Shown here one piece after another: positions 9,446 to 48,738 of a stretch of DNA of 64,000 nucleotides. The translations under genes were made by a program, and so were the position numbers. The notes beneath the pieces were generated by a model. It did not search any database. It was not told where the DNA came from and saw only the letters and a list, made by a program, of their open reading frames with translations. Source of the stretch: Minisyncoccia bacterium (GTDB taxonomy: Bacteria > Patescibacteriota > Minisyncoccia > Phycocordibacterales > UBA918); contig JBKBPM010000002.1 in the NCBI GenBank assembly GCA_046293175.1, forward strand, positions 19,176-83,175, given 5' to 3'. Positions within the stretch are counted from its first letter, which is position 1. The number at the start of each line of letters is the position of its first letter.

Positions 9446-9485
9446 TCGTCCGCCGTTCCTTTTCTGGACCGGCGGGCGCTTTTTA
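9446..9485 (+). terminator. rho-independent terminator, copy 1 of duplicated cassette terminator
   Basis: GC-rich stem (c)cgccg...cggcggg followed by TTTTT; about 90% identical to 10283-10326. Confidence 0.5.
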
Positions 9486-9613
9486 GTTTAAAACTTCATA
9501 CACTCACTTTCGAATGGTGTTTTCTATATCAATGCGGCACACCTCTTTACGAAAATCACCATAAGGAGTACGTTTATAGGTAGCGAAACACTAACCAGGC
9601 AAGGAGACTACCG

Positions 9614-10282: not shown

Positions 10283-10326
10283 GCCCGCCGTTCCTTCTCT
10301 GGACCGGCGGGCGCTTTGTTTTTTGG
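10283..10326 (+). terminator. rho-independent terminator, copy 2
   Basis: gcccgccg...cggcgggc stem followed by gctttgtttttt. Confidence 0.5.
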
Positions 10327-15922: not shown

Positions 15923-15960
15923 TTACCGTATAAAAAATGACTCGTTCCATCTTACTCACG

Positions 15961-16039
15961 CTTCTTACAGAAGCTGTACACCTTTTGGAAATCAAGGATT
16001 TCTCAAAAGGTCTTGCGGCAGTTCCCCAAACTGCCTCAC
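15961..16039 (+). repeat. intergenic repeat unit copy 1 (TTACAG-N6-TACACC box + variable-stem hairpin + TCAC)
   Basis: cttcttacagaagctgtacaccttttgg...caaaaggtcttgcggcag-ttccccaaa-ctgcctcac; family members at 41.5-41.9 kb and 48.5-48.7 kb. Confidence 0.55.
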
Positions 16040-16368
16040 CTGGTCTGAATTGATTATCAAGCCGAGTTAGACGAAAAAAACGCACTCTGGTGCGATTTTT
16101 TCGTGGGAACGACAGACGCATGCTCCTAGACGAAGTCCAGGTGGGCACCCTTTCCGATTTGTGTCTGAAATTTCTTGCGAATTCTCATTACTCCTCGCGA
16201 CTACAGGCAGCCCTGCGTGTTATATAACCGGAACATACGTGATGTCGTTCCTAGTACAGTATAACAAAAAAATTTTCTCACACCAAAGACTGAAATTCTT
16301 TGGTGTACATATGCATAGAAGAAAAGCGGGTAGATTTCGAGGAAAATATGAGGCACAAGAAAAAAGAC

Positions 16369-17225: not shown

Positions 17226-17262
17226 TAATAAAAAGAAAAAAGGCCGGGCTTTGCGTCCGGCC
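17226..17262 (-). terminator. rho-independent terminator of map
   Basis: ggccgg-gctttgcgt-ccggcc followed on minus strand by TTTTTTCTTTTT. Confidence 0.5.
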
Positions 17263-17427
17263 AGGTCCAACAGGGAGGATGCCGCGCCATAACCCCGACA
17301 CGACCAGGGGAACCACTACATTCAGTGTATGCCTGTACGTGGCTACTGTCAAAATAAATCTGGGACAAACAGATATACCCCGATCGATTGGAGTATTGTC
17401 AATATGAAATGTGAGGACGTTAACAGA

Positions 17428-34374: not shown

Positions 34375-35049
34375 TTAGCAATCACTACCGCTACCGCGCC
34401 GTGAACACGCTCCGCCATCTGTGGTTGGCTTTGGTGCCGTACAGTTACTATCAGACACAATCGAGCCGTACTGATCACGACATTCTACCGTACGGACATT
34501 TCTTCCGTTGGTTGTGCTACATGAAGGTGGCCACGGCGCGTTACAAGCATAGGCGCCGGTTACCCACCCATAGACCGGGGTTGAACATTCGGCTAATACA
34601 ACGGTGTGATATTGGTACGTACGTCCAACTGAAGCACAGACATTAGCGGCACTTCCAGTCATTGGTCGGATATACGTACTGTTATCATTTCCATCCCCAC
34701 TCCAGTTCCAGTTACAGGTTACGGCCCAAGCTGGTTCAAAGCATTTTCCCCCAACAATAATTGGGTCATCACCTCCACCCCCTCCTGGTGCACCAGTTGA
34801 TGGATCCCAACAGTTGGCGCCGAGTTCGTCACAATAACGTGGGGACCAGGTTGAGGTAGCAGCCGCCACTATATTAGCCATAAAGTTACCGGTCTTTGCT
34901 TGGGTGGTAGCACCAACATTTATTGGCGCAGGAGTATTATCATTTGGTGCAGTGGCGGTGGGTGCAGACCACTGGGCAGACATGAAGTTGTAGCTTACAA
35001 AAAGAAGGGCAACAAGGCTAAAGATGGCTAAGGAGCGATATTGTTTCAT
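34375..35049 (-). CDS. secreted Cys-rich protein, cassette-family paralog A
   Basis: Signal peptide MKQYRSLAIFSLVALLFVS; conserved N-module ...WDPSTGAPGGGGG; 12-Cys variable C-terminus. Confidence 0.55.
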   Translation of the reverse strand: MKQYRSLAIFSLVALLFVSYNFMSAQWSAPTATAPNDNTPAPINVGATTQAKTGNFMANIVAAATSTWSPRYCDELGANCWDPSTGAPGGGGGDDPIIVGGKCFEPAWAVTCNWNWSGDGNDNSTYIRPMTGSAANVCASVGRTYQYHTVVLAECSTPVYGWVTGAYACNAPWPPSCSTTNGRNVRTVECRDQYGSIVSDSNCTAPKPTTDGGACSRRGSGSDC

Positions 35050-35140: not shown

Positions 35141-36001
35141 TTATGAGCAAGACCGAGTACTACCGAAGGTAACTCCAGTTGGCAATACACAACCAAGACT
35201 AAAACCAGACCCAGCACCAGTTGCCCCAGTGGCTGTCCCGTATGAAGCACATGCGCTAAAATCCCAACTAGCTGGCACATTGAATGAATCCCGCCAATTA
35301 CCAGAAAGTGCAACCGAGCAGAATTTCAGGTCCTGGGCTGCGGTTGATCCACCCGAATTACAGGCTGAGGTACTACCAAACGTCACACCAGTATCGGTCA
35401 AACAACCCATTTGTCGTCCTACTGCGCCGGTTGTTGTCTGAAAACTGGCACACTGAGCATCTCCAAAGCTTGCTGGCACGAGAATAGTATCGCGCCAGTT
35501 CCCAGAAGCAGCAACTACTGAACAAAACTTTCGTGATGGCATCGGTTCTGCAACCGCCCCATCACAGGCGGTATCGTCGTTCTCATAAAATTTATCACCA
35601 GCAATGCAGCCAAAAGCATAGCTCGTCGCACCTACAGCAGTCATAAAGCTCTGGCAGGTAGTGCTGGTCCAAGACCCAGGAACTACAATCGTATCGCGCC
35701 AATTACCACTTACGAGTACTGAACAAATCTTGTACACCAAGCCGTTACCGTTAGCAGCGGTACAATTATTCCCGAGAGCATCACAGTAGCGGTTTGAGCG
35801 CATCTCCGTTGTGGCGGCCAAGATATTGGCGGCCAAGTTGCCATTCTTAGCCTGAGTGGTTGTACCAACATTTATTGGCGCAGGAGTATTATCATTTGGT
35901 GCAGTGGCGGTGGGTGCAGACCACTGGGCAGACATGAAGTTGTAGCTTACAAAAAGAAGGGCAACAAGGCTAAAGATGGCTAAGGAGCGATATTGTTTCA
36001 T
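35141..36001 (-). CDS. secreted Cys-rich protein, cassette-family paralog B (three internal about 68-aa 4-Cys repeats)
   Basis: First about 47 codons and 13 nt of 5'UTR identical at DNA level to paralog A; repeats SGNWRDxIxVPxS...GVTFGSTSxC. Confidence 0.55.
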   Translation of the reverse strand: MKQYRSLAIFSLVALLFVSYNFMSAQWSAPTATAPNDNTPAPINVGTTTQAKNGNLAANILAATTEMRSNRYCDALGNNCTAANGNGLVYKICSVLVSGNWRDTIVVPGSWTSTTCQSFMTAVGATSYAFGCIAGDKFYENDDTACDGAVAEPMPSRKFCSVVAASGNWRDTILVPASFGDAQCASFQTTTGAVGRQMGCLTDTGVTFGSTSACNSGGSTAAQDLKFCSVALSGNWRDSFNVPASWDFSACASYGTATGATGAGSGFSLGCVLPTGVTFGSTRSCS

Positions 36002-37381: not shown

Positions 37382-37973
37382 TTATGGTGCGCGCAATTCA
37401 CGGACTACATAGTGACCATTACCAGAATTAGTGGTCAGGGTACCAAATCTATAATAATGTCCTGGCGAAATAATAATGGTTGAACCGTTATCAAGATCAC
37501 TGTCATAGTCTTGGTAGTTCATTCTCACTGAGGTGGTAGTTGAAACACCCACATCGATAATCGTACCGTCCCAAATATTCTTATGGAAAACCATAATTGG
37601 CTGATCAGTATTATTTTGGTACCAAACACCCTGGGTACGGTTAACCACTTGCCACGTTTGATTATAACCAATACCACCCCCCGCCCGGCGCGCCAGTACT
37701 TGGATCCCAACAATTATTCCCGGTCTCATCGCAGTACTGTGGAGACCAGGCGGAGGTAGCGGCCGCCACTATATTAGCCATAAAGTTACCGGTTTTGGCT
37801 TGGGTGGTAGCACCAACATTTATTGGCGTAGGAGTATTATCATTTGGTGCAGTGGCGGTGGGTGCAGACCACTGGGCAGACATGAAGTTGTAGCCGGTAA
37901 GAAGGCTTGGGCAGATAACTAACGGGATAAAAGCAAGGGTTTCTTCATATGTAGTCATTCTATTAAGAGACAC
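37382..37973 (-). pseudogene. cassette-family paralog C; reading frame broken at a C6-G-C3 homopolymer (37677-37686); N-terminal signal region replaced
   Basis: ORFs 37662..37973 and 37382..37729 overlap; DNA 37762-37896 about 98% identical to paralog A 34862-34996. Confidence 0.45.
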
Positions 37974-38531: not shown

Positions 38532-39725
38532 TTACTTGATGATCTTAGTTACAACACCAGCACCAACAGTCTTTCCACCTTCGCGGATAGCAAAGTTAGT
38601 CTGCTCTTCCATCGCTACTGGAGCGACGAGCTTGACCTTAAACTTAGCAGTATCTCCTGGCATAACCATTTCAACTCCCTCGCTGAGAGTTACCTCACCA
38701 GTAACGTCAGTGGTACGAATGTAGAACTGTGGCTTGTAACCAGTAAAGAATGGTGTGTGACGACCTCCTTCATCCTTCGAGAGTACGTATACTTCGGCTT
38801 CAAATTCTGTGTGTGGAGTCACTGAGCCCTTCTTCGCAAGTACCTGTCCACGGTGGATGTCTTCCTTCTTCACACCACGAAGAAGAATACCAGCGTTGTC
38901 TCCGGCCTGAGCCTGATCAAGCTGCTTGTTGAACATTTCAACTCCAGTCACCGTAGTAGTGGTAGTATCCTTGATACCAACGATTTCTACTTCTTCACCA
39001 ACCTTCACCGCACCACGTTCTACACGACCGGTTACTACCGTACCGCGTCCTTCAATTGAGAAGATATCTTCAATTGGCATAAGGAACGGCTTATCGAGCT
39101 GACGTTCTGGTAGTGGGAAGTATGAGTCCATCGCATCAACGAGTTCGATGATCTTGTCACCCCACTTACTCATTGGATCATTGAGAGCCTGGAGGCCTGA
39201 ACCGTGGATGATTGGAGCGTTCGCACCATCAAATCCGTTGTGGGTGAGGAGTTCACGGAGTTCTTCTTCCACGAGCATGAGCATTTCTTCGTCGTCAACC
39301 ATATCGCACTTGTTGAGGAATACGATGATGTTTGGCACACCCACTTGCTTTGCGAGGAGTACATGTTCACGAGTCTGTGGCATCGCACCGTCGGTAGCTG
39401 CTACTACGAGCACAGCGCCGTCCATCTGGGCTGCACCAGTAATCATGTTCTTGATGTAGTCAGCGTGACCAGGCGCGTCGATGTGCGCATAGTGACGATT
39501 TGGAGTCTCATACTCACTGTGTGAGAGAGAAATAGTAATACCACGAGCTTTTTCTTCTGGAGCCTTGTCGATTTCATCAACACCCTTAGTGGTAGCATCG
39601 TAGCCATTTCCACGAGCGTGGAGAGTGCTAAGAATTGCAGCAGTAAGCGTAGTCTTTCCGTGGTCAACGTGACCAATGGTACCTACGTTTACGTGCGGCT
39701 TTGTGCGGTCAAATGAACCTGCCAT
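38532..39725 (-). CDS. tuf: elongation factor Tu
   Basis: 397 aa; [14 protein letters not shown]-like motifs. Confidence 0.95.
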
Positions 39726-40314: not shown

Positions 40315-41436
40315 TTATACTTCCACAGCTACTGGTATAACCTCAATACTCAATCGTTCTTCGACAGTGCCATACGCACCCGTACAGGTCATACGTACAG
40401 TGGCAGTATTCATAATTGGACCAGTCTGTACAGAGCCACTGACCGCACCAACCGCTAAATTGGTAATACCAGGACCGTTAATTACACAAGTATTCCCAAT
40501 GAGTGATGATAGACTCCAGGTCACGGTAGCGGTGTTACCACGCCGTACTATTGGTGGAATGGCATTGAGATCCATTGTTGGACTAGTAGTACCAGTGCCG
40601 AGTATACAAATACCGCCACTAGGTATTAGACCAGCTGCACAGGTGGCACTGAGGGTAACCGCATCGAGCATGGTAGTACCACTACGAGCATGGAAGGTGG
40701 TATTACCAAGACCGATGGTTACACCAAAGTTTGTTTGTGTGTGGTTCGTACTCAATTGACTGGCCGGAGCCGTTACCCGATATATATTTGGTGAGGCTAC
40801 ACTGTTATCAATATCCCAATTAAGCTGGGTAACACAGGTACTTGCGTTCTGTGCTACCATACAGTTATTACCCCAGATAGTGGCGCTTGTGGTGGCGAAA
40901 GTAACGTGTGAAAACATATCAATCCAACCAACCACCTCACTTCCCCAAGCGTATGAATCTGCGTTCATACCGGTTGCCATATTTGATGTGATGGCATGAT
41001 TGGTGCCGCGCAGTGAAATCCAACCATCCCAAGCACCAGCTTCAGGATTGTTACTCATAGTACTGCAGGTACCACCAAGTGTCCCCGCACATGCCCTGGC
41101 CCAGCCACTCCAAGTGAGGTTTGGATATGTACCGGTCAAGCGAGCATTTTCTGCTGCCGTACCGCCACCGGTTGGGAAACCAGCAAGACCGCCAAACTTG
41201 ATCCAGCCAATATTACTACTCCAACCCCAGCCGGTGATAGTCCGGTCGGCGTTAATGGTTACTTTGTAGTCACTTGAGGCACAGTTACTATCATTACGAC
41301 AGTTGAGTGAAATCCATCCGATATTACTGCTCCAGGCAAAGCCATCGAGATCAATCGGAGCTGGAAGTGTCTGGGCATGAGCAAAGGCCGCTCCAACAAA
41401 TAGCATAGCGAGTAAAAACAACTGGTACAGTTTCAT
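40315..41436 (-). CDS. secreted repeat protein (SSNIGWI / GW-type repeats)
   Basis: Signal peptide; repeated WSSNIGWISL, WSSNIGWIKF, WDGWISL, VGWIDMF motifs. Confidence 0.45.
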   Translation of the reverse strand: MKLYQLFLLAMLFVGAAFAHAQTLPAPIDLDGFAWSSNIGWISLNCRNDSNCASSDYKVTINADRTITGWGWSSNIGWIKFGGLAGFPTGGGTAAENARLTGTYPNLTWSGWARACAGTLGGTCSTMSNNPEAGAWDGWISLRGTNHAITSNMATGMNADSYAWGSEVVGWIDMFSHVTFATTSATIWGNNCMVAQNASTCVTQLNWDIDNSVASPNIYRVTAPASQLSTNHTQTNFGVTIGLGNTTFHARSGTTMLDAVTLSATCAAGLIPSGGICILGTGTTSPTMDLNAIPPIVRRGNTATVTWSLSSLIGNTCVINGPGITNLAVGAVSGSVQTGPIMNTATVRMTCTGAYGTVEERLSIEVIPVAVEV

Positions 41437-41533
41437 ATACTAGTAGTATAGGGTACAGAATGATACAAAGGAGGCGCTTGTACACAAATGGGGGATACCG
41501 TTATCAGATGCTTTTCTTGTTATGCTTCTTCCA

Positions 41534-41562
41534 TTAGATCCTTCTTCTTACAGAAACTATAT
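41534..41562 (+). repeat. intergenic repeat family, truncated copy 2a (box only)
   Basis: cttcttacagaaactatataccatttggg. Confidence 0.4.
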
Positions 41563-41581
41563 ACCATTTGGGCATTTCATT

Positions 41582-41674
41582 TCTTTACCCTTTTACAGAC
41601 ACTATACACCTTGTCGCTACTTTATTTCGTTTCACTCATAAAGTACCTGGCAAGGTCTTGCTAAAGTGACCCGC
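41582..41674 (+). repeat. intergenic repeat family copy 2b (type A)
   Basis: tttacagacactatacaccttgtcgctactttatttcg...ctggcaaggtcttgctaaagtg-acccg-cactttctcac. Confidence 0.55.
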
Positions 41675-41840
41675 ACTTTCTCACTCATAGAATTCCTCAA
41701 ATGGTCTTGCAGAATATGAACGGATTAATAAAAAGGCTCTCTCTGGAGCGCCTTTTCTTATGCCTCTTCTACAATATCCTTCAAGGTCAAGTCATTAAAT
41801 ATATTTCTTACTTGGTTCAAAATCTTCTCAGTGCTTCCCG

Positions 41841-41936
41841 CTTACAGCGGCAGTACACCTTTTGGATATCTTGTTTCGTTTCACTTACAAATTATCACAA
41901 AAAGTCGTGCGAAATGGGGTCCCATTCCATTTCTCA
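41841..41936 (+). repeat. intergenic repeat family copy 2c (type B)
   Basis: cttacagcggcagtacaccttttggatatcttgtttcgtttcac...caaaaagtcgtgcgaaatgg-ggtcccatt-ccatttctcac. Confidence 0.55.
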
Positions 41937-42056
41937 CCCCCCGCCTCGCTGATTCGGCGCCTGTAGAGTCGCCCTACTTCGTTCCGGCTCGTCAAAGATA
42001 TAGTGGGAAGACATATATAAAGAGAGCACCCTCGTCGGGTGCTCTCTTTATTATTA

Positions 42057-44228
42057 TTATGCTTCCTCCACTATATCTTTGACACCTCTCGACTTCTTGA
42101 TTTCCATTGCCACGTTTGGTGGGACGACATCATAGTGATCGAAAGTCATGGTCATACTAGCGCGACCTTGAGTCATCGAACGGAGAGTGTTTGTGTAACC
42201 AAACATTTCAGAGAGTGGTACTTGGGCGGTAATCACCTTCTTATCACCAAGATCGGTCATTCCCTCTACCTGACCACGCTTACTCGAGATATTTCCGTTA
42301 ACGTCACCCATGAACTGCTCTGGAGTACGCACTTCAACCTTCATTACTGGTTCAAGGAGCACAGCACCGGCCTTCGCTGCTGCTTCCTTAAAGGCGTAAA
42401 TAGCCGCAAGCTTAAAAGCAATTTCACTTGAGTCTACTTCATGGAATGATCCATCATAGAGCTCCACAGTCACGTCTTCCATCTTGTAACCGGCCACAAA
42501 ACCACGTGCCATCGCTTCACGACAACCCTTCATAACAGCTGGGATAAATTCACCTGGGATCGCCCCTCCTTTGATACTGTTCACAAACTCAAAGTGATCT
42601 TCACGAGTGACATTCTTGGGCACTTCCTTCCCTTCTTCAAGTGGTTGCATTGGGCGAATCTTAATCTTGACGTGTCCGTACTGTCCACGACCACCAGATT
42701 GCTTTGCGTACTTGTAGTCTGCTTCAGCTTCGTGTTGAATCGTTTCTCGATAGGCTACCTGAGGAGCACCAACGTTAGCTTCTACACCAAATTCACGCTT
42801 CATACGGTCAACGAGAATTTCTAGGTGAAGCTCACCCATACCCTGAATAATCGTCTGCATGGTTTCTTCGTCAGTAGAAACGATGAAGGTTGGATCCTCG
42901 TCAGAGAGCTTCTTGAGTGCAGTACTCATCTTCTCCTGGTCATTTTTGGTCTTCGGTTCGACACTCATTGCGACCACTGGTGCTGGGAACACAATTTGTT
43001 CAAGAATGATTGGATTCTGCTCATCACAAAGTGTATGTGATGTCTTTACATCTTTGAGTCCTACGCCAGCCGCAATTTCGCCTGCGTATACTTCTTCGAT
43101 TTCTGTACGTTTATCGGCCTGGAGTCGCACGATACGACCAAGACGTTCTTTCTGACCAGTTGTCGCATTGTAGATATAGCTACCAGCTTTTACCACACCT
43201 GAGTACACACGGAAGAAAGTGAGCTGCCCCACAAATGGGTCAGTCTGTAGCTTAAACGCAAGCGCGCAGAATGGTTCTTCATCTGAAGCAGTGCGAGTGA
43301 TTTCCGCTTCGGTATCTGGATTTGTACCCTTAACTGCTTCGAGGTCAGTTGGTGCGGGAAGATAATCAACTACACCGTCAAGTACGAGCTGGACGCCAAT
43401 GTTTTTCAAAGCTGAACCAGTGAACACGGGGAAAATTTCGTTAGCAATCACCGCTTTACGGAGAGTGGCTTTGATTTGTTCATTCGTTGGCAATTCTCCA
43501 TTAAGATAGGCCTCCATCAAGGCATCATCATGCTCTACAACACGCTCAATGAGCTCGGCGCGGTACATTTCTGCATCATCCTTAAGCTCGGTCGGAATCT
43601 CATGCTCCACAATTTTAGTACCCATTTCTCCTTCGAAGGTATATGCCTTCATGCGGATAAGATCTACAACACCTTTGAAGTGTTCTTCCGCACCCCAGGG
43701 AAGTTGTACTCGTACGGCCTTCTTTGAAAGTCGGTCAAGAATACTGGCATATGACTTCTCAAATGATGCACCCATACGGTCCATCTTGTTGATGAAACAG
43801 AGACGAGGCACTTTCGCTTCGTCGGCGTAACCCCAGTTGGTTTCAGACTGTGGTTCTACTCCAGCTACTGAGTCAAATACGACGACAGCACCATCAAGTA
43901 CACGCATTGAACGCTTTACTTCAGCGGTGAAATCGATGTGACCGGGTGTGTCGATAATGTTAAAGGTGTACATCTGTGACTTGTCTTTACGATCAGTCAC
44001 ATCTGATTTTGACCAGTTACAAGAAATCGCGGCCGCGGTAATGGTGATACCACGTTCACGTTCCTGTTCCATCCAGTCGGTTACCGTCGCACCATCATGC
44101 ACTTCACCAATCTTATGTGACATACCGGTATAGAAAAGCACGCGCTCTGAGGTAGTAGTTTTACCAGCATCAACGTGCGCAACAATACCGAAGTTACGCA
44201 TTCTATTAATAGGAAATTCTCGGGCCAT
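42057..44228 (-). CDS. fusA: elongation factor G
   Basis: 723 aa; [10 protein letters not shown]-domain. Confidence 0.95.
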
Positions 44229-48382: not shown

Positions 48383-48482
48383 GCACTATCTTTAGAATTA
48401 CTCGGGTAGTATACCAGATTGTTTTGGAGTAACGACATGTTATTTCAATTCCAAGAATGCGTTCAAAAAGCATTCAGACAAG

Positions 48483-48574
48483 TGAGAAAGCGCGGGGCGC
48501 TTTCGTAAAACCTTTTGCGATAGTTTGTGAGTATAACAAAACAAACTAGCCAAAAGGTGTACTGTTCCTGTAAG
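48483..48574 (-). repeat. intergenic repeat family copy 3b (type B, inverted orientation)
   Basis: Reverse complement reads cttacaggaacagtacaccttttggctagtttgttttg...caaaaggttttacgaaagcgc-cccg-gcgctttctcac. Confidence 0.55.
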
Positions 48575-48602
48575 GAAGCGCAAACGGGGCGTATATAGAC
48601 AC

Positions 48603-48684
48603 TTCTTACAGAAGCTGTACAGGTTGTCGCTATTTTTTCATAATAGCTGGCAACCTCTTGCGAAAGTCTCCCAGACTTTCTCAC
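48603..48684 (+). repeat. intergenic repeat family copy 3a (type A), head-to-head with 3b
   Basis: cttcttacagaagctgtacaggttgtcgctattttttcataatagctggcaacctcttgcgaaagtct-ccc-agactttctcac. Confidence 0.55.
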
Positions 48685-48738
48685 GATGAGTGTTTCTGAG
48701 TGTAGCGCAACAAATTCTGAGAGATTTTTGGACGCGTT

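Follow-up and report, generated by a model that had tools for sequence, protein, structure and literature searches.

A three-hairpin repeat family of Parcubacteria-group genomes with features of a non-autonomous mobile element

What are the repeated sequences that fill the spacer behind fusA in a Minisyncoccia bacterium, and how did they come to be there? We investigated this question in a 64,000-nt stretch of contig JBKBPM010000002.1 (assembly GCA_046293175.1, positions 19,176 to 83,175), hereafter the window. The spacer occupies positions 41437-42056 (620 nt) and lies between fusA (42057-44228, minus strand), which we identified through its Pfam EF-G domains, and a 373-aa gene (40315-41436, minus strand) for which a Pfam search gave no match. 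A sequence-only reading of this DNA had described three repeat copies here and proposed that two types, A and B, together make up one composite, the relative orientation of which can flip. It had also described the spacer as splitting fusA from tuf; the side away from fusA is formed by the 373-aa gene, and tuf (38532-39725) lies two genes past it. Our analysis suggests that the repeats are a non-autonomous mobile element specific to the Parcubacteria group of the candidate phyla radiation (CPR), with RNA-mediated spread as the favored route, a reading to which we assign a probability of roughly 60%. The element is a discrete unit with precise ends, it has neither terminal inverted repeats (TIRs) nor an open reading frame (ORF), and it has been gained and lost between close relatives. 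This CPR repeat of about 100 bases and three hairpins is previously undescribed; literature searches returned no description of the family.

The repeat copies belong to one structured family

The copies were first grouped as one family by a repeat search, a pattern search and an alignment of the copies. A covariance model (CM) built from 76 homologues and run over the window recovered exactly five full copies, with E-values of 1e-14 to 1e-18, and the next match scored 11.5 bits. The CM and the alignment thus uphold the assignment to a single repeat family. The unit measures about 85-105 nt and runs from the first paired base of hairpin P1 through P2 and P3 to an exact 3' end, ...CUCA. P1 is a short hairpin with a variable stem and an invariant C-UUACA-G loop, P2 is a long hairpin (GUACACCUUUUGG...CAAAAGGUCUUGC) with a variable tip, and P3 lies 4-5 nt from the 3' end, followed by UCAC. 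All members have CUUACAG-N5-GUACACC...GGUCUUGCG...CUCAC in common. The consensus shows no TIRs, its 5' end (..CUCCUUACAGGAGC) not being complementary to its 3' end (..UUCUCA), and the element encodes no protein.

Two of the five full copies are located in the spacer, both on the plus strand as previously read and with coordinates that the CM moved by about 10 nt at most. Copy c2b (41588-41685, CM match 41585-41690; 69.2 bits, E=1.4e-14, fold energy z -3.25) has a UUGUCG variant of P2 and a degenerate P1, and copy c2c (41834-41943; 84.8 bits, E=2.6e-18, z -4.12) has a UUUUGG variant. The other full copies are c1 (15957-16045, plus strand, 78.9 bits, z -4.99), c3a (48476-48581, minus strand, 84.8 bits) and c3b (48598-48690, plus strand, 78.2 bits), the last two standing head-to-head at 16 nt. 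A further copy in the spacer, 2a, had been read as a box only; it is present as a 5' fragment comprising P1 and the start of P2 (41544-41582, plus strand), and its detection is weak (nhmmer E=0.002 over model positions 5-43, box pattern with 2 mismatches). The loose box pattern alone does not rise above chance, with seven matches where 4.3 are expected.

Each full copy has the three hairpins, with fold energy z-scores from -3.2 to -5.0. Across the 76 sequences, 13 of 23 base pairs show double compensatory changes. Helix cells were paired in 97% of cases, compared with 78.5% in column shuffles and 37-50% when the partners were slid by 1-3 columns, and cells with double changes numbered 292 against 82 expected. 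Since P1 and P3 were left as N in the search pattern, and hence unconstrained, their covariation is not an ascertainment artefact. Types A and B turned out to be covarying variants of P2, UUGUCG...CUGGCAA and UUUUGG...CUCAAAA, respectively.

The fusA spacer was built by successive insertions

The arrangement of the spacer is explained by successive insertions and deletions. At least two insertions built it, and each left a pseudo-copy of the 24 nt that end fusA. The real fusA 3' end, which is the duplicated target, lies at 42057-42080 on the minus strand and encodes KDIVEEA and the stop codon (from translation and the Pfam EF-G assignment). Searching the window for these 24 nt with up to 6 mismatches gave three matches, all on the minus strand, and none in shuffled sequences. 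Read in the direction of fusA, the gene end is followed by a bidirectional terminator common to fusA and unit 2 (42017-42051; a 15-pair stem on both strands in a terminator scan), by the reverse complement of unit 2 (its extension, c2c and its leader), and by pseudo-end 2 (41758-41781, minus strand, KDIVEEA and stop, 5 mismatches), which separates units 2 and 1 and was recognized by alignment and translation. Next come a terminator-like hairpin with a U tract that closes unit 1 (41736-41749, plus strand, terminator scan), the reverse complement of unit 1 (c2b and the 5' fragment), pseudo-end 1 and the original intergenic DNA. Pseudo-end 1 (41520-41543, minus strand, KDLMEEA and stop, 4 mismatches to the real 24-mer), found by alignment and translation, is the distal target duplication of unit 1.

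Unit 2 is larger than the core. Its 5' leader (41783-41836, plus strand), between pseudo-copy 2 and P1 of c2c, has a sequence that is not conserved in the family. Its 3' extension (41944-42016, plus strand) consists of CCGCCUCG, a hairpin, UCCGGCUC and an inverted copy of the fusA 3' end (41994-42015), and the same extension occurs in copies linked to tRNA genes. The inverted fusA-end match was also seen between window positions 42007-41994 and the minus strand of a relative, L200.

This history is supported by four relatives, chosen as contigs that carry homologues of the 373-aa neighbor (here and below, L numbers denote loci outside the window). In L200, where the neighbor is 96% identical, the spacer is 196 nt long and contains no core copy; this relative has lost the cores. 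The spacer measures 648 nt with three to four copies in L201 (neighbor 90% identical), 232 nt with unit 1 only in L202 (79%), and 431 nt with unit 2 and a degenerate copy in L203 (70%). The unit 2 leader is conserved together with the core in L201 (91%) and L203 (78%). In L202, the real fusA end and its terminator are 98% identical to window positions 41781-41731, which hold pseudo-end 2 and the unit-1 terminator; the unit-1 hairpin at 41736-41749 thus corresponds to the fusA terminator of L202. This identity suggests that L202 resembles the state before unit 2 arrived. A comparison with the closest fusA contig, L120 (87%), was uninformative, as its gene order differs.

L201 also provides a filled and empty pair. 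An extra 84-nt copy (L201:447-541, minus strand, 69.5 bits), reading TGAG...CTGTAAGGAG on the fusA strand, sits cleanly inside the extension of the unit 2 that is orthologous to c2c, and the window and L203 are uninterrupted at this point. The pair delimits the mobile unit as running from the first base of P1 to ...CUCA. Long target duplications are not obligatory, since the duplication here is at most 3 nt; the long ones may reflect rescue events favored by selection or may have arisen by template switching.

Insertions duplicate and rebuild tRNA and protein genes

Other loci show the same kind of insertion. Inserts of 100-300 nt without an ORF were found in at least 12 different tRNAs and in msrA, GH1, fusA and a P-loop gene. 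Two layouts recur at tRNA genes. In the first, read on the tRNA strand, a 5' piece of the tRNA is followed by the reverse-complemented element, a short spacer and a complete tRNA, and direct repeats of the tRNA 5' part flank the insert (L074, L096, L075 and L058). In the second, a complete tRNA is followed by the insert and a copy of the tRNA 3' part, and direct repeats of the 3' part flank the insert (L002, L053, L066, L051 and L035). An intron in the tRNA, or a split tRNA, was rejected as an explanation, since an intact tRNA copy always lies beside the fragment.

At protein genes, the element is found directly after the TGG GGN codons of GCFWG / FYWG in msrA (L062, L017) and GH1 (L009, L061, L106). 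The old gene start remains upstream as a fragment, and the 5' coding segment is duplicated behind the insert, which restores the full ORF, sometimes with a new N-terminus. Copies at orthologous msrA and GH1 sites belong to different subfamilies, each with its own duplicated gene fragment, pointing to repeated independent hits at a TGGGG hotspot. Inside genes, insertions survive only if the duplication restores the gene. An in-frame element was found in mnmA (L013:2401-2493 and L057:516-609), between ATGHYA and KDQSYFL, where read-through adds about 31 residues; the MnmA proteins of the two genomes are 83% identical.

One junction of the element uses a target G. The 3'-side junction is always G|TGAG, that is, ...CUCA followed by a target C, and 12 such junctions were seen on the target strand, at the sites TGGGG, GAG or GTG. 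The left flanks vary, ending in CT, TA, AT, AG or GT. In one class of insertions the 3' end is exact, and unrelated sequence of 16-81 nt is often present on the 5' side. Of all copies, 12% lie between direct repeats of 9 nt or more, compared with 1.9% of mismatched-flank controls; these repeats reach 38-40 nt, and perfect repeats of 13-40 nt occur at L113, L080, L085, L070 and others. Overall, the length of the target duplications varies between about 0 and 46 nt, from at most 3 nt in L201 up to 13-46 nt elsewhere, and at the window copies c1, c3a and c3b none was significant.

A separate observation concerns L070:1300-1560, where a 58-nt target is present twice in tandem, once with and once without the element. 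The layout is X-CACTCCTT-[element]-CCTT-Z-X-CACTCCTT-Z, with microhomologies of 4-8 nt at both junctions. Two further interpretations were rejected: an IS608-like TTAC target inside P1, because the 5' arm of P1 belongs to the inserted DNA, and a tRNA-like reverse strand with P1 as a tRNA-Val anticodon arm, a likeness seen by eye only, which neither ARAGORN nor the Rfam tRNA model supported.

About 15-25 of 140 copies, nearly all beside tRNA genes (L035, L045, L050, L051, L066, L084, L088 and L111), have an extended form of about 250 nt. It adds GGUCAC and a hairpin, P0, at the 5' side and CCUCG, a hairpin (P4) and UCCGGCUUUCGAGUCC at the 3' side, often followed by an inverted copy of the neighboring tRNA 3' end and a shared terminator. 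The extended form is flanked by a direct repeat, and its target duplications always start in the T-loop. Copy c2c carries the same extension, with the inverted fusA-end copy beside the terminator. The extended forms matched no Rfam family, and permissive Rfam scans of window positions 41400-42100 and of two extended copies returned only noise and neighboring tRNAs.

The family is dense in some CPR genomes and absent from many relatives

To place the family, one degenerate pattern was scanned against 185,579 species genomes, giving more than 119 loci among the matches listed. These came nearly all from metagenome-assembled genomes (MAGs) of the Patescibacteria/Parcubacteria group, including Nomura-, Kaiser-, Zambryski-, Taylor-, Lloyd- and Vogelbacteria, Paceibacterota and Minisyncoccia. 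An nhmmer search of the corresponding loci (883 kb) yielded 149 copies, with about one further copy per 29 kb besides the copy by which a locus had been selected; the density in carrier genomes is about one copy per 15-30 kb. We found a single copy when 80 fusA loci on metagenome contigs of other CPR bacteria (546 kb, EF-G 58-87% identical) were searched. The distribution is therefore patchy, the element being dense in carriers and absent from many relatives. A phage origin was rejected, as the pattern had no matches in 2.9 million viral contigs. As a side observation, at nine of the fusA loci (L126, L133, L135, L141, L166, L175, L179, L182 and L184) the EF-G tblastn match spans 2.6-3.2 kb and not 2.17 kb, which suggests insertions (inteins, introns or other) in the fusA genes of other CPR bacteria.

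The orientation of the copies is random relative to genes and to GC skew. Copies lie on the same strand as both neighbors in 35 cases and on the opposite strand in 28, with nine in convergent and eight in divergent spacers. The gene downstream shares the strand of the copy 49 times and has the opposite strand 47 times, which is not what a riboswitch or cis-acting leader would lead one to expect. Orientation relative to local GC skew was 64 versus 78 (p=0.3). The only strong context signal comes from tRNA genes: the 883 kb contain 95 tRNAs, and 57 element-tRNA pairs lie within 500 nt of each other, on opposite strands in 45 of the 57.

A small RNA (sRNA) gene with its own terminator was rejected as an interpretation, because the frequency of terminator-like sites differs neither between the two sides of the copies nor between the two directions. 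The arrangement TGTAAG-17 nt-TATATA at 48556-48600 was also rejected as a promoter, since it does not generalize. Head-to-head pairs 16-22 nt apart were observed at two unrelated loci, the window (48476-48690) and L009:2667-2876; if both members of such a pair were transcribed outward, each promoter would lie inside the other copy. All-against-all clustering of 654 neighboring ORFs in search of a recurrent partner protein returned housekeeping genes only. A phmmer search with retron and LtrA reverse transcriptase (RT) queries found no RT adjacent to any copy. One group-II-intron-like RT ORF was seen 4.6 kb from a copy (L077:813-1814, minus strand; phmmer against the LtrA query, 1.8e-19).

A possible route of spread

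We propose a copy-and-paste mode of spread in which the intermediate is RNA of the CUUACAG strand. An RT encoded by the host would copy the element RNA from its 3' end, primed by a DNA 3'-OH that pairs with ...CUCAC(C), which would result in target-primed or template-switch insertion, and the conserved hairpins would serve as the recognition structure. On our reading of the element as mobile, copies are carried passively in untranslated and intergenic regions, where they can provide neighboring genes with terminators and occasionally with Shine-Dalgarno-like sequences or a new start codon.

This SINE-like route (after the eukaryotic short interspersed nuclear elements) is our leading guess and holds about half of the weight of the explanation. 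It is favored because the 3' end is exact with G/C microhomology and the extra 5' sequence is variable; because several units, among them units 1 and 2 of the window and L069, end at the U tract of an intrinsic terminator; because the duplications are long and variable, as in target-primed reverse transcription; and because P2 contains U-G pairs on the CUUACAG strand. A stronger claim would be that this is the first bacterial SINE-like retroposon, a structured RNA reverse-transcribed at a G-ended 3'-OH, which would seed itself into tRNA genes, into the DNA between genes and into the 20-45 nt at the start or end of protein genes. We hold this claim as tentative and would sooner expect it to fail than to stand.

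Several observations weigh against the proposed reading. In a second class of insertions it is the 5' end that is exact, with extra sequence on the 3' side, and among truncated copies 11 lack the 3' part and four the 5' part, the opposite of what is seen in SINEs and their long counterparts (LINEs). The cleanest insertion, in L201, has almost no target duplication, and unit 2 was kept in relatives whose neighbor is only 70-90% identical (L201 and L203). Inverted target copies beside terminators look like products of DNA fold-back or template switching. Upstream of P1 there is no information content beyond position -6 and no promoter at a fixed distance, so that the promoter hypothesis was rejected, and no RT, transposase or integrase recurs among the ORFs neighboring the 149 copies. 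Median copy identity is 73% within genomes and 69% between them, with the structure kept in almost all copies. In P1 and P3, A-C mismatches outnumber G-U pairs, so that the structured strand is not settled. Finally, at least some copies may have a host function, as old intact copies and the retention of unit 2 fit selection on individual copies.

Alternative explanations

The alternative to which we give most weight is that the host maintains the copies for a function, as a family of small RNA genes or of RNA elements acting in cis (for example, a stable structured non-coding RNA to which a common protein binds, an insulator, or an element for RNA processing), with the duplications and tRNA chimeras arising as recombination by-products at structured DNA. 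Many Parcubacteria-group lineages do keep both sequence and structure, with compensatory changes, copies that share a genome are old (60-73% identical) but retain an intact fold, and the same intergenic positions are occupied where the flanking proteins are only 52-76% identical. Unit 2 of the fusA spacer was kept in L201 and L203, and the enrichment of nearby tRNA genes, mostly on the opposite strand (45/57), would also suit a function. However, the random gene orientation and the lack of a promoter or terminator at a fixed place are difficult to reconcile with it, as are copies inside coding sequences and the presence or absence of copies between relatives at 90-96% identity. The msrA and GH1 copies, from different subfamilies and with their own duplicates, speak for independent insertions at TGGGG, and the element is nearly absent from most other CPR fusA loci. 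A trans-acting RNA, moreover, would not require dozens of diverged copies. We therefore regard this explanation as rather unlikely.

A DNA-borne route without RNA is a serious rival to the RNA-mediated one. It could take the form of a miniature inverted-repeat transposable element (MITE) with long staggered cuts, an HUH/Y1 single-stranded DNA element, or microhomology-driven template switching at hairpins. Long, variable staggered cuts have been reported for the transposases of IS1634/IS1549-type IS4 relatives. Both ends of the unit can be exact, its hairpins are subterminal (P1 at the 5' end and P3 4-5 nt from the 3' end), and G-U and A-C mismatches are mixed across the helices. The inverted target 3'-end copies by terminators of tRNAs and fusA and the microhomology at both L070 junctions would likewise be expected of such a route. 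The consensus nevertheless has no TIRs, none of the 149 copies has a transposase gene nearby, and there is no orientation bias relative to replication. HUH elements leave no target duplication and use a fixed tetranucleotide, whereas the left flanks here vary, and pure template switching would not yield identical exact ends at unrelated loci. On balance, we consider an exclusively DNA-borne origin unlikely, and its probability low.

The composite unit of A and B types with flipping orientation, as first proposed, is very improbable. The types are adjacent at both multi-copy loci of the window, in tandem at 41.6-41.9 kb and head-to-head at 48.5 kb. In the census of 149 copies at 120 loci among the matches listed, however, 96 loci are single-copy and the types occur independently: A+B makes up three of ten adjacent pairs, two of them from this window, where 25% would be expected by chance. 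The two types differ by covarying changes in one helix, every copy in the fusA spacer is flanked by a fusA-end duplicate of its own, marking separate insertions instead of a tandem composite, and relatives gain and lose single copies independently. We found no evidence of site-specific inversion.

That the ORFs 41701-41952, 41831-42082 and 48463-48684 encode a small conserved protein has a negligible probability. The one point in its favor is that two of them (41701-41952 and 48463-48684) share the 15-residue peptide QYTFW[IL][SV]CFV[SI]LTNY, which they do because the same frame of the repeat is translated. The peptide is absent from ORF 41831-42082, previously thought to share it, in which a different frame of the repeat is read. 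A terminator lies within ORF 41701-41952, homologous copies lie on either strand with P2 and P3 length differences that are not multiples of three, and conservation tracks base pairing and not codons; the view that these ORFs are artefacts therefore holds.

Other features of the window

Some features of the window are independent of the repeat. At the gathering score, Rfam 15 matched only SorX (RF02784), unrelated to the repeat, at 17236-17310 on the minus strand (61.7 bits, E=1.3e-12, full length, with a terminator at its end). SorX is a Rhodobacter sRNA, which makes the match unexpected in a CPR-like genome. ARAGORN found no tRNA in the window. Direct repeats of 217 nt, 69-88% identical, lie at 34778-34994, 35730-35946 and 37678-37894, inside neighboring minus-strand ORFs without Pfam matches; these ORFs probably encode surface proteins or unknown proteins that are paralogous to each other. 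Two sites 835 nt apart, 9450-9489 and 10285-10324, share a 40-nt terminator-like sequence, CCGCCGTTCCTT.TCTGGACCGGCGGGCGCTTT, with 90% identity.

Implications for carrier genomes

The genomes of CPR/Patescibacteria are very small and are regarded as poor in mobile DNA. In its carriers, the element remodels gene ends, including tRNA genes, the N-termini of msrA and GH1, mnmA and the fusA pseudo-ends. It also accounts for spurious short ORFs, "pseudo-tRNA" fragments and over-long spacers in the annotation of these MAGs, and the CM could be used to mask them. If it is a retroposon, its insertions into the ultra-small CPR genomes would reconstruct gene ends and contribute terminators and start sites. 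An RNA intermediate, if true, would imply a new class of prokaryotic retroelements and an unrecognized RT activity in CPR bacteria. No described bacterial transposition mechanism fits well the combination of exact ends, no TIRs, no nearby transposase, long variable duplications and G-microhomology.

Comparison with known systems

Compared with integrase-type islands, the element shows direct repeats of tRNA segments but neither an integrase gene nor a single fixed tRNA target. It resembles the palindrome-associated transposable elements derived from IS200/IS605 in being strand-specific, in having exact ends with a subterminal hairpin at each and in lacking TIRs, and its cleanest insertion (L201) is essentially free of a target duplication, as in those elements. 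It differs from them in its many long duplications, in its two end hairpins, which are dissimilar, and in a left flank with no conserved target tetranucleotide; the ORFs near the copies include neither TnpA nor TnpB, and the Rfam IS605-orfB RNA families gave no match.

Repetitive extragenic palindromic (REP) sequences and their BIME (REPIN-RAYT) arrangements are also intergenic hairpin repeats, with a similar density (about one per 15-30 kb), tandem or head-to-head pairs and long persistence at their loci. A REP, however, is a single species-specific palindrome of 20-40 nt with a GTAG head, whereas the CPR unit is about 100 nt long, has three hairpins and no GTAG head, and has been conserved between candidate phyla. 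The neighboring ORFs, covering the 8-kb flanks and the window, included no RAYT gene.

The insertion signature is most similar to that of eukaryotic SINEs. These are likewise non-autonomous, structured RNA-like units whose 3' end is exact and joins the target with microhomology; they have target duplications of variable length, a variable 5' junction, random orientation and subfamilies among copies; and some CPR units end at a transcript terminator, as do SINEs and retro-copies of processed small RNAs. The variable duplications, exact 3' end and 3' microhomology are all present in the CPR element, but it shows no excess of 5' truncation and no internal promoter, includes some insertions with an exact 5' end, and has no partner RT linked to its copies. 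The likeness is therefore one of analogy and not of membership, and we know of no such retroposon in bacteria.

The MITE-like bacterial repeats of the ERIC/IRU, Correia, BOX and bcr1 type share with the CPR element their size, intergenic position, occurrence in either orientation and predicted RNA structure. Like it, they are co-transcribed with their neighbors, number tens per genome and can contribute signals resembling terminators or ribosome-binding sites. They have TIRs and short fixed target duplications (TA for Correia). The CPR element lacks these MITE hallmarks, its target duplications extending from 0-3 nt to 13-46 nt, and it is conserved over a much deeper taxonomic range.

Rickettsia palindromic elements (RPEs) offer a further parallel: they are short (about 100-150 bp), structured and non-coding, have no known transposase, and reside in a reduced genome. 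They occur in intergenic regions, in frame within protein genes and in RNA genes, as the CPR element does in mnmA and tRNA genes. An RPE consists of one long palindrome, whereas the CPR element has three hairpins with invariant loops, and by description the two are unrelated in sequence and fold. The hosts also differ (Rickettsia and CPR), and here gene ends are duplicated and rebuilt, which to our knowledge has not been described for RPEs. The element thus belongs with the small non-autonomous structured repeats: by analogy, it is closest in behavior to RPEs and to the ERIC/Correia/BOX-type repeats, and closest in insertion signature to SINE-like retroposons.

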